DNA of 32,000 nucleotides from Limisalsivibrio acetivorans (lineage in GTDB: Bacteria; Chrysiogenota; Deferribacteres; Deferribacterales; Geovibrionaceae): contig NZ_ATWF01000001.1 of the NCBI RefSeq assembly GCF_000421105.1, forward strand, positions 21,987 to 53,986, given 5' to 3'. This document shows positions 8,103 to 9,948 of this stretch, in pieces. The notes under the pieces were generated by a model that made no database searches, was not told the DNA's origin, and was given only the letters and a program-made list of their open reading frames with translations. How positions within the stretch are numbered: position 1 is the stretch's first letter; every line of letters starts with the position of its first letter. The translations under genes were made by a program, and so were the position numbers.

Positions 8103-8300
8103 AAAGTTTATCGCTTATTGATGGTTATTCAACTGTCTGATGATAAATCATATTTTGGCAGTAAACATATGTATGTAGGGATGGGGTGTTCATGTCTTCC
8201 ATGTTTATGCGTATAGATATAATAAATCCATAAGAAAAATCTATGCTCGAATTCGCATATTGATCTTATTCAGATAGATTAAAATGGGTTTTTGAGGGGT

Positions 8301-8341
8301 GCGGGGAACTTTGTTCCCTAAAAAGTTCCCTGCGATTTTTT
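8301..8341 (+). terminator. Orphan intrinsic-terminator-like hairpin on the + strand
   Basis: GCGGGGAACTTT (8301-8312), a 9-nt loop, AAAGTTCCCTGC (8322-8333), then GA and T6 (8336-8341). The G8303:T8331 pair is a wobble only on the + strand. No + strand CDS lies upstream of it. Confidence 0.55.
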
Positions 8342-8800
8342 CCTTTCATACTCAAATTAGAAATAAGCCACTAATCTCTTTGTCTTGCGCTTTCGCGCCA
8401 CATACTTTTTAGAAAAGTATGCAAAACTATTCCCTCAGGGTTTTTAAGCCGTCATTGTTATCAGTATTTTAATAAAATACTTATAACTGATAACGGTTCC
8501 CTCGCTTCGCACTCCCTTTTCCTGAATATTTCCTGATTCTGAGGAGGTTATTAACTTATCACAGTTAGCCGAAGCAATTATTCATAGATTCATCAATGGT
8601 TATCGTGCGGGAAATATTCCTGGCGGAAAAGTAATCGCTCGCTCGGCTTAAAAACATTCGGGGAAGAGAAGAAAGGGTTTTGGGTGCAATATCTTAGTGA
8701 CGTGAGTAATGGTTACTGGCAAAACAACTCTAGACGGGGCACGTTGTTTTGCTCGCATCGGGCACATGACAGCATGCTTTATAACGATCTACGTCGTCAT

Positions 8801-8957
8801 TAATCTGGGAAATTCATCATCCTGTTTAGTCTATGGAATTTCCCATCCATGGAAATTCCATTGCCGCTCTGCTTGGCAAAGCCTTCGCTTCGCTTACTTC
8901 CGGCTTCGTGAATTGAGCAGAGCCCAATTCAGCTACGCCTTCAGGGCCAACATCTAC
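8801..8957. repeat. Truncated and chimeric module copy (R1 with a 37-nt insertion, R2, and the first half of the next hairpin)
   Basis: 8899-8945 is identical to 9364-9410 (47 nt). 8946-8954 (CCAACATC) matches the left arm of the module A hairpin (9076-9083), not that of module B. TAATCTGGGAAATT recurs at 8801 and 8958. Confidence 0.7.
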
Positions 8958-9238
8958 ATAATCTGGGAAATTTATCATCCTGAGAATTTCCCTGCCGCTA
9001 CGCTCGGCAAAGCCTTCGCTCCGCTTACTTCCGTTACAGAATATGAAGCATAGCTCCATATTATTCACTTCAGAGCCAACATCCGTGTTGGCTTTATTAG
9101 TTTCAACCTCAAACGTATGATTAGTATAAGCTTTCATGGATGAAAGCTCGCTTGCGTAAGTGAGAGGAAAGTTTCTTTCTTCGAACGGCGGAATAATTTC
9201 CATGGACGGGAAATTATTCAGATAGATAAAGGAGTTTT
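8958..9238. repeat. Module A of the tandem array
   Basis: R1 is 8965-9033 (2 mismatches against 9298-9366). A diverged R2-like hairpin lies at 9040-9062 and a second hairpin at 9074-9093. R3 is 9115-9238 (3 mismatches in 124 nt against 9450-9573, no indels). Confidence 0.8.
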
Positions 9239-9248
9239 TAAGGGGTTC

Positions 9249-9284
9249 TTAAGGGGAACTTTTTACATAAAAATTTCCCCTTAG
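9249..9284 (+). other. Inter-module stem-loop, homologous in position to the 8301-8341 terminator hairpin
   Basis: A 15-bp stem pairs TTAAGGGGAACTTTT with AAAATTTCCCCTTAG, with one C:T mismatch and one T:G wobble that is legal only on the + strand. The loop is TACATA. The downstream sequence TCTTAATTC is only a weak U-tract. Confidence 0.5.
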
Positions 9285-9290
9285 TCTTAA

Positions 9291-9573
9291 TTCATCAGGG
9301 AAATTCATCATCCTGAGAATTTCCCTGTCGCTACGCTCGGCAAAGCCTTCGCTCCGCTTACTTCCGGCTTCGTGAATTGAGCAGAGCCCAATTCAGCTAC
9401 GCCTTCAGGGCTTCCATCCTTGGAAGCCTGTTGCATATCAACCTTGATTGTATGATTAGCATAAGCTTTCATGGATGAAAGCGCGCTTGCGTAAGTGAGA
9501 GGAAAGTTTCTTTCTTCGAACGGCAGAATAATTTCCATGGACGGGAAATTATTCAGATAGATAAAGGAGTTTT
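9291..9573. repeat. Module B of the tandem array
   Basis: R1 is 9298-9366, the R2 hairpin 9373-9395, the second hairpin 9409-9428 and R3 9450-9573. It ends 3 nt before the stop codon of the glyoxalase gene. Confidence 0.8.
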
Positions 9574-9576
9574 CCT

Positions 9577-9948
9577 TTACTTATCTGCAGGGATAATCTC
9601 CAGCCAGTATCCGTTGGGATCCTTTATGAAGTAGATTCCCATCTCCATATTCTCGAATACGATACAGTCCATATCCTTGTGCTTCTTATGGGCGGCTTCG
9701 AAATCGTCCACAACGAAGGCTATATGCAGATCATTATCGCCGTGATTATAGGGCTCATTCCGGTCTCTGAGCCATGTAAGCTCTATCTGACAGTCTGACT
9801 TCCCGTCCTCAAGGTAAACAAGGATAAACTTCCCTTCGGGTTGTTCAAACCTTCTGGCCTCTTTCAGGCCGAGTGCTTCTTCGAAGAACTTAACTGACTT
9901 ATCTAGATCTAGAACATTGATATTGGTGTGTACCATTCTGAAATCCAT
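9577..9948 (-). CDS. VOC-family protein / glyoxalase I-like (lactoylglutathione lyase family)
   Basis: MDFRMVHTNINVLDLDKSVKFFEEALGLK...IELTW...HIAF.V.D....H........YFIKDPNGYWLEI is a typical small glyoxalase I pattern. I place the start at ATG 9948, with AGGAGG 6 nt upstream, rather than the track's TTG at 9966. Confidence 0.85.
   Translation of the reverse strand: MDFRMVHTNINVLDLDKSVKFFEEALGLKEARRFEQPEGKFILVYLEDGKSDCQIELTWLRDRNEPYNHGDNDLHIAFVVDDFEAAHKKHKDMDCIVFENMEMGIYFIKDPNGYWLEIIPADK

Follow-up and report, generated by a model that had tools for sequence, protein, structure and literature searches.

The stretch of DNA analysed here, referred to as the window, comprises 32,000 nucleotides (nt) of the Limisalsivibrio acetivorans genome (contig C1, NZ_ATWF01000001.1, positions 21,987 to 53,986) and contains two adjacent repeat units, A and B, in which near-identical flanks enclose a diverged core. 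Very probably, these are neighbouring units of a lineage-specific, non-coding, mosaic family of intergenic repeats, of the same kind as the bacterial interspersed mosaic elements (BIMEs) and BOX elements. The family is new in its sequence and in its organisation into cassette alleles. Within each cassette, the loop and the flanks were kept, and the stem changed in complementary pairs only. Units A and B differ by allele and not by turnover.

The term "forward" is used below for the minus strand of the window. The array and the modules of the two units, delimited by transitive BLAST closure and module tiling, are as follows.

8266-9575 (genome C1:30252-31561), minus strand: the whole repeat array.
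9450-9573, minus strand: R3 module of unit B.
9403-9449, minus strand: H2 cassette, allele B, with its hairpin at 9409-9428 (stem GGCTTCC/GGAAGCC, loop A-A-GGA-U).
9367-9402, minus strand: H1 cassette, allele B, with a 10-bp stem (TGAATTGGGC/GCTCAATTCA) and a G.U at pair 8 that pairs on the minus strand only.
9294-9366, minus strand: R1 module of unit B, internal type i1, with the terminal hairpin CAGGGAAATTC-TCAGGATGAT-GAATTTCCCTG, whose loop has CAGGAUG.
9239-9293, minus strand: SP module separating the units, with the hairpin GGGGAAATTTTTA-TG-TAAAAAGTTCCCC.
9115-9238, minus strand: R3 module of unit A.
9068-9114, minus strand: H2 cassette, allele A, with its hairpin at 9074-9093 (stem AGCCAAC/GTTGGCT, loop A-C-GGA-U).
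9034-9067, minus strand: H1 cassette, allele A, with an 11-bp stem (GAATATGGAGC/GCTTCATATTC; its 5' G, at 9068, is common to H2) and a G.U at pair 8.
8961-9033, minus strand: R1 module of unit A.

All of the features named in the initial annotation of this DNA were found in their places. The two R3 modules (9115-9238 and 9450-9573) were 97.6% identical, with 3 mismatches in 124 positions, and the two R1 modules (8961-9033 and 9294-9366) were 96% identical, with 3 mismatches in 73; the earlier count of 2 in 69 came from slightly narrower bounds. Hairpin 2 had the sequence AGCCAACA-TCCG-TGTTGGCT in unit A (9074-9093) and GGCTTCCA-TCCT-TGGAAGCC in unit B (9409-9428). The two aligned without gaps, four of the eight pairs differed between the units, each of these differences was compensated, and the hairpin started 41 nt ahead of R3 in both units. 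Hairpin 1 was found at 9040-9062 and 9373-9395; both cores fold into two hairpins at corresponding places. When folding was checked on both strands, both cores performed better than dinucleotide shuffles (z = -2.3 to -4.5).

The contrast between the diverged core and the near-identical flanks is real, but the identity of the flanks proved to be ordinary for the family and not special to this pair. Genome-wide, copies of R3 and R1 had a median identity of 93-94.5%, reaching 97-98.6%. The turnover of sequence that had been proposed for the cores was not borne out, since copies of core A were 96% identical at two other loci, copies of core B were 95-96% identical elsewhere, and core alleles recurred across the genome at 93-96% identity. 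Therefore, the near-identical flanks and the diverged core are seen together because two adjacent units carry different alleles, and rapid change of the core is not their cause.

The order of modules was always [SP]-R3-H2-H1-R1 in the forward direction, and units were arranged head to tail and were often partial. What had been described as cores corresponds to a pair of cassettes, the 47-nt H2 and the H1 of 34-36 nt, both of which occur in a few discrete alternative forms. The H2 stem alleles were GGCTTCC, AGCCAAC and GGCTCCC, together with a single GGCTTTC. Five H1 types were distinguished, which had the central AGC-TNT-GCT in common and differed in their outer stems, each being self-complementary nevertheless. 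In R1, the internal hairpin and the terminal hairpin each came in two types. Flanked by the conserved R3 and R1 modules, the alleles H2A-H1A are found in unit A and H2B-H1B in unit B. Tables of H2, H1, R1-internal and R1-terminal alleles against one another were nearly fully populated; for example, H2A was joined to H1A, H1B, H1C and H1D in 6, 18, 1 and 10 units, respectively. The R3 module contains the hairpins R3a (GAATAATTTCC-CGTCCAT-GGAAATTATTC in unit B) and R3c (GCTTTCAT-CC-ATGAAAGC).

A query of 801 nt around the locus gave 149 BLAST matches in the 2.97-Mb genome from which it came. Transitive BLAST closure converged on 90 loci covering 59.9 kb, or approximately 2% of the genome, with arrays of up to 1.77 kb. 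The number of units was roughly 130, and R3 was present in 34 near-full copies. The family lay outside crude open reading frames (ORFs) over 96% of its length, and the overlap (2.6 kb) was due to ORFs lying within repeats. The genes on either side of the arrays converged at 42 loci, ran in the same direction at 33 and diverged at 9. At 45 of the 99 junctions with gene 3' ends, the distance from the stop codon to the array was less than 15 nt; no module or orientation was favoured next to stop codons. Arrays were frequently bounded by the ordinary terminators of flanking genes and at times supplied the stop codon of the adjoining gene.

Pairing in the stems was maintained over approximately 120 copies of hairpin 2, with three to four fully complementary stem types. 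Among the 120 complete H2 hairpins, all four stem types were perfectly Watson-Crick, and mismatches were single and scattered. Pair statistics were computed on a model-fitted alignment of 47 distinct copies with 500 shuffles. Paired cells amounted to 99.2%, versus 87.3% in the shuffles and 23-57% when the partners were slid by 1-3 columns. Doubly changed cells numbered 38, versus 7.3 +/- 2.3 in the shuffles, none of which (0/500) reached 38. The covariation score was 0.340, as compared with 0.116 for the control. Maintenance of stems extended to other hairpins of the family. In the internal hairpin of the R1v variant (G[AG]GC[AG][AG][AG]G-TTT-complement), 586 of 608 pairs were Watson-Crick, four positions were each split between G-C and A-T with full compensation, and at least six stem haplotypes were present. 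The case for compensated hairpins is statistically solid.

A homologous module outside L. acetivorans showed the same behaviour. A genome of another genus of the same family (G005) contains a homologue of the R1 module of unit B. There it is part of a repeat family of that genome, which is dispersed in intergenic DNA and gave 48 matches. The two modules have in common the linker ...CCGCT.CGC.TCGG.AAA...CGCTTAC, and the hairpin loop keeps TCC, which is GGA on the other strand. The stems in the G005 module differ from those of R1 and are complementary in every copy. Therefore, the module predates the genus, and it follows the same rule there: the loop is kept, and the stem is free to change but remains paired. 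The G005 repeat family (L125, L128, L130) also has other hairpin modules, for example TTGCTTCGTCAC...CATTGCGAG...GCAATCTC, which were not found in the L. acetivorans genome.

Several observations bear on which strand folds. In both H1A and H1B, pair 8 has retained a G.U, which can pair on the minus strand alone, and 63 G.U were counted versus 3 A.C across the stems of these alleles. This G.T was present in 56 of 84 copies of H1A and H1B, and the remainder were mostly Watson-Crick; pair 8 of H1B also samples G-C, A-T and T-A. The uninterrupted helices of the cores form on the minus strand. Whole units folded alike on both strands (z = -5.4 for the minus strand and -5.8 for the plus strand). The G.U pairs of H1 and the uninterrupted helices are a hint, although not proof, that the minus strand is the one that folds.

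The selection on a folded nucleic acid that the initial annotation had proposed can be retained in part: constraint on a folded single strand is a reasonable explanation of these data, but a mutational process that corrects palindromes could also contribute. The constraint may act on RNA, where binding by CsrA is the best specific idea, or on single-stranded DNA during spread, or the pattern may be partly due to palindrome-correcting replication errors. In the explanation that we favour, a unit is an ordered chain of hairpin cassettes, several of them with a few alternative alleles, and recombination or gene conversion among the roughly 130 units would shuffle these alleles. The element would be constrained to fold as a single strand, possibly the minus strand, to which the strand-specific G.U signal of H1 points. 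Arrays would accumulate at the 3' ends of genes, with probable inclusion in 3' untranslated regions. The most specific functional hypothesis is that a protein recognises the conserved CANGGAYG loops.

It must be taken into account that some results speak against this explanation. Copies within one genome are related, and the independent compensatory events are few: approximately 5-6 in H2 and at least 4 in R1v. Single-mismatch intermediates were strand-symmetric (7 G.U versus 9 A.C in H2 and 5 versus 6 in R1v) and thus do not by themselves favour RNA over DNA. The copies were 80-96% alike, which does not point to any very recent burst. No means by which the family spreads was found, with neither a Y1 transposase of the type associated with repetitive extragenic palindromic (REP) sequences (RAYT) nor an autonomous partner; a six-frame search of the 99.99%-complete genome for Y1_Tnp (PF01797) gave no match, and the controls matched as expected.

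The strand symmetry of the intermediates is what would be expected if there were no selection on folding and the two strands were equivalent. According to this alternative, template switching in quasi-palindromes copies mutations from one arm to the other, and the repeats are neutral junk in harmless 3' intergenic DNA. The lack of function, promoter or terminator signals above chance and the frequent bounding of arrays by the ordinary terminators of flanking genes agree with it as well. However, it would leave unexplained that the loops and the linkers between hairpins are also conserved, across genera, that H1A and H1B keep in most copies a G.T that such correction should remove, and that several stems of the family keep bulges. 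The fixed order of modules and the long persistence of the family also suggest constraint. Neutral origin of the whole pattern was judged unlikely.

Other readings of the locus fared worse. Each unit has an ATG and an open frame on the minus strand, as follows.

9538-9308, minus strand: ORF of 76 amino acids (aa).
9203-8826, minus strand: ORF of 125 aa.

It is nevertheless extremely improbable that these ORFs encode small proteins with a variable middle. A protein-coding family was rejected because H1A and H1B differ in length by 2 nt, which changes the frame in which the conserved R1 is read between the 76-aa and the 125-aa ORF. Moreover, ORFs starting from the same ATG of R3 ranged from 22 to 138 aa among 24 copies, mismatches were evenly spread over the codon positions (33/38/37), with no bias, and a Pfam search of the two minus-strand ORFs gave no match. 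An equally remote chance was assigned to the proposal of a guide-like role, in which the variable core would serve as a specificity segment or guide and pair with some target nucleic acid. The constant-variable-constant layout had suggested it, but the cores turned out to be a few discrete, reused alleles that are shuffled combinatorially, and their variable bases lie mostly within stems, so they are not free to pair. A search for sequences complementary to the cores found nothing convincing in the genome outside the family (the best match was 15 nt, E = 0.16) and no match in phage and plasmid collections. Somewhat better, though still improbable, is the idea that each unit is an independent small RNA (sRNA) gene of a multicopy family with its own promoter and terminator. 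The units fold far better than shuffled sequences on either strand (z values given above), and the SP/R3 junction has, on the minus strand, a weak promoter-like sequence (TTAAAA-17-AATAAT). However, promoter-like and terminator-like sites were at or below the shuffle expectation, and the frequent truncation and recombination of units would remove either end. Rfam searches at gathering thresholds and at E values up to 10 gave chance matches only, with no Csr/Rsm RNA family among them. To our knowledge, a set of about 130 units also far exceeds any known sRNA family.

The loops of the family suggest a possible function. In the forward direction, the H2 loop is C-A-N-GGA-U-G, where N is any base, and GGA was kept in 108 of 120 copies and in all stem types. 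The R1 terminal loops contain CAGGAUG or CAUGGAUG, and the R3a and R3c loops contain CAUGGA[CU]G on the opposite (plus) strand. Altogether, C-A-N-GGA-Y-G or CAGGAUG is found in the loops of five hairpin types, so that multiple GGA hairpins, as in Csr/Rsm RNAs, are present. These loops match the consensus for CsrA obtained by in vitro selection of ligands (SELEX), RUACARGGAUGU, and the CsrB repeats, CAGGA(U/A/C)G, as reviewed in PMC7652899. Of the 1455 occurrences of CANGGAYG in the genome, 302 fall within the repeats, which make up 2% of the genome.

The genome has one fliW-csrA pair. This operon (C1:1683490-1684100) is followed by a 1-kb array in reverse orientation (1684112-1685158), which begins 11 nt past the csrA stop codon with no terminator between them, and the sense strand of this array carries the R3c and R3a CAUGGA[CU]G hairpins. 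Six flagellin-domain matches were found, and the four highest-scoring of them have a leader hairpin with a CAAGGA[ACU]G loop (on contig C2, upstream of the genes at 462035, 417351, 414090 and 574926). In these four leaders, a second site, CANGGANG, lies 20-30 nt downstream and overlaps the ribosome-binding (Shine-Dalgarno) site in three. Judging by this classical two-site arrangement, the leaders are of the hag type and are likely CsrA sites.

It is conceivable, as a tentative proposal, that the repeat hairpins are also CsrA-binding sites and that arrays transcribed as part of 3' untranslated regions or by read-through would present many C-A-N-GGA-Y-G loops and thereby titrate or recruit the FliW-type CsrA as a dispersed decoy or wiring system. 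Such a role would supplement the mosaic-repeat explanation with a function and would not replace it. The C-A-N-GGA-U-G loop was kept on three different H2 stems, and a GGA loop was kept on different stems in the homologous module of the other genus; the loops match the SELEX consensus, the CsrB repeats and the organism's own flagellin-leader sites; CANGGAYG is concentrated in the repeats; and the csrA stop codon of the only fliW-csrA pair adjoins an array. On the other hand, the motifs occur on both strands of the units (245 forward versus 120 reverse), and the orientation of arrays relative to flanking genes is about random. The stems, at 7-11 bp, are more stable than those of typical high-affinity CsrA hairpins (PMC7652899). 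The hairpins with GGA loops seem to be paralogous and derived from a single ancestral TTTCCATGGATGGAAA hairpin, and common descent thus accounts for some of the shared motifs. There was no CsrB/Rsm-type match in Rfam, and an array would lie beside a gene by chance for approximately 4% of genes. An antisense bias of GGA just after stop codons (87 versus 45) was discarded as evidence, since it follows from the inverted-repeat layout of the unit ends. The fuller proposal, that the mosaic repeat has spread several hundred CsrA-type GGA-loop hairpins, including those in the csrA 3' flank, and that read-through transcripts would buffer or redirect the FliW-partnered CsrA, is a little more doubtful still. 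We know of no sponge RNA in this bacterial group.

The family was compared with known systems. BIMEs consist of REP or palindromic units (PU) plus linker motifs. BIMEs of Escherichia coli and its relatives are likewise extragenic, lie mostly at gene 3' ends at many loci, are often in tandem, and are mosaics of palindromic units of a few sequence types and short motifs in a set order. The present family, with approximately 90 intergenic loci and ordered hairpin modules, is an extragenic palindrome mosaic of the same description. The insertion sequence IS1397 inserts specifically into BIME hairpin loops, and a similar targeting was observed here, where the IS30-family element ISb lies in the M5 loop in 4 of 5 copies. 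The differences are that the family is not known to resemble BIMEs in sequence, that the genome has no REP-associated Y1 transposase, that the units are longer (approximately 330 nt, with 7-8 hairpins), and that the loops carry the conserved CANGGAYG and the two ends of a unit are arranged as an apparent inverted repeat. BOX elements of Streptococcus pneumoniae (boxA-boxB(n)-boxC) share with the family ordered modules, an intergenic copy number of about 100 or more, internal modules that vary in number, mutually complementary terminal modules, stable predicted folds and restriction to a lineage. They are not known to be related in sequence, and the present family has recombining alternative alleles at several positions and arrays of up to 1.7 kb.

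CsrB/CsrC and RsmX/Y/Z (PMC7652899) have in common with the family many GGA-loop hairpins, with CAGGA(U/A/C)G or CANGGANG. They are, however, single genes of Gammaproteobacteria with defined promoters and terminators, whereas the family is a dispersed DNA repeat with motifs on both strands, in a genome where CsrA is paired with FliW, and it has no Rfam match. Miniature inverted-repeat transposable elements (MITEs), such as the Correia elements of Neisseria and RUP of S. pneumoniae, are also small, non-coding and intergenic and sometimes supply stop codons to the gene next to them. They have terminal inverted repeats, to which the complementary R3a and R1-terminal ends described below may correspond. 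Unlike these, the family has no matching autonomous element, and head-to-tail arrays and partial units, and not single complete insertions, are the rule.

The remaining parts of the array in the window and the gene next to it are the following.

8830-8954, minus strand: extra partial unit, comprising an H1B-like piece (8903-8954) and then an R1 copy.
8266-8450, minus strand: distal modules of the same family, comprising M5 (the CATACTTTT...AAAAGTATG hairpin and GGCGCGAAAGCGCC), an SP-type hairpin (8301-8341) and a truncated start of R3.
9577-9948, minus strand: gene of the glyoxalase/VOC family, with its stop codon 2 nt ahead of R3.

M5 and the SP variants are thus further modules of the family. 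The R1 copy of the partial unit has the other type of terminal hairpin, ATGGAATTTCC-ATGGATGG-GAAATTCCAT, and this hairpin and the R3a end make up an inverted repeat. The inverted repeat of the R1-terminal hairpin and the R3a end is approximately 39 nt long; for R1 of the tA type, complementarity reaches 82-95% in stretches of 21-33 nt, the fit of the commoner R1 type is poorer, and each arm is itself a palindrome. The hairpin at 8301-8341 had been taken for an orphan terminator, which was rejected: it is an SP-type module of the family in reverse orientation, and the same hairpin and flanks occur at many array ends. Only 2 nt separate the array from the stop codon of the glyoxalase-family gene, and the transcript of this gene should therefore run into the array in the forward sense.

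The only multi-copy proteins in the genome were two IS30-family transposases, and the ends of their elements are unrelated to the repeat modules. Both elements use modules of the family (the SP and M5 types, as at 8266-8450) as insertion targets. ISa is 1073 bp long and has 11 copies, six of which lie inside arrays with duplications of 2-3 bp, several in or beside SP-type GGGGAAC...GTTCCCC hairpins. ISb, of approximately 1.1 kb, has 5 copies, 4 of which are at the same point in the M5 hairpin loop (CATACTTTT...AAAAGTATG).

C1:96768-97839, 280408-281477, 460606-461674, 1360913-1361979 and 2355541-2356612, and C2:538453-539513: ISa copies.
C1:1822996-1824070, 2356730-2357804, 2372854-2373928 and 575658-576732: ISb copies.

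Beyond this genome, the H2 cassette was absent from 15 other genomes of the same taxonomic family in both DNA and covariance-model searches. The repeat was absent from 40 related genomes apart from weak matches, one of which was the diverged R1-like module of G005. Exact-pattern scans of GTDB representatives and metagenomes gave no match, and no similar DNA was found in phage and plasmid collections.

Two further observations concern the genome at large. Breaks in the assembly coincide with the repeats: at the start of C1, 639 nt (C1:1-639) are identical (100%) to the reverse complement of C2:584897-585535 and of C3:1-639, and these contig ends consist of the mosaic repeat family. Therefore, C2, the contig with the flagellin genes, does not have to be a replicon in its own right; no plasmid matched it. 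An array of clustered regularly interspaced short palindromic repeats (CRISPR; C1:1373116-1374885), with 30 copies of a 28-nt repeat (TTTCTAAGCTGCCTGTGCGGCAGTGAAC) at 60-nt spacing, lies between two mosaic repeat loci and reads as a spurious 172-aa ORF.

If the hairpins were indeed bound by CsrA, the family would be a chromosome-wide, repeat-borne counterpart of the CsrB/RsmZ sponges. It would indicate that the binding sites of a global RNA regulator can be dispersed by repeats that move or recombine and would point to an RNA-based level of control over CsrA in FliW-using bacteria. Apart from this, the family is a clean natural example of stems with paired substitutions, having more than 100 copies per hairpin in one genome and a diverged counterpart in another genus, and is useful for telling selection on folding from palindrome-correcting mutation. 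It also demonstrates that an architecture of conserved arms and a variable core can arise by the shuffling of a few cassette alleles, without a targeting function.

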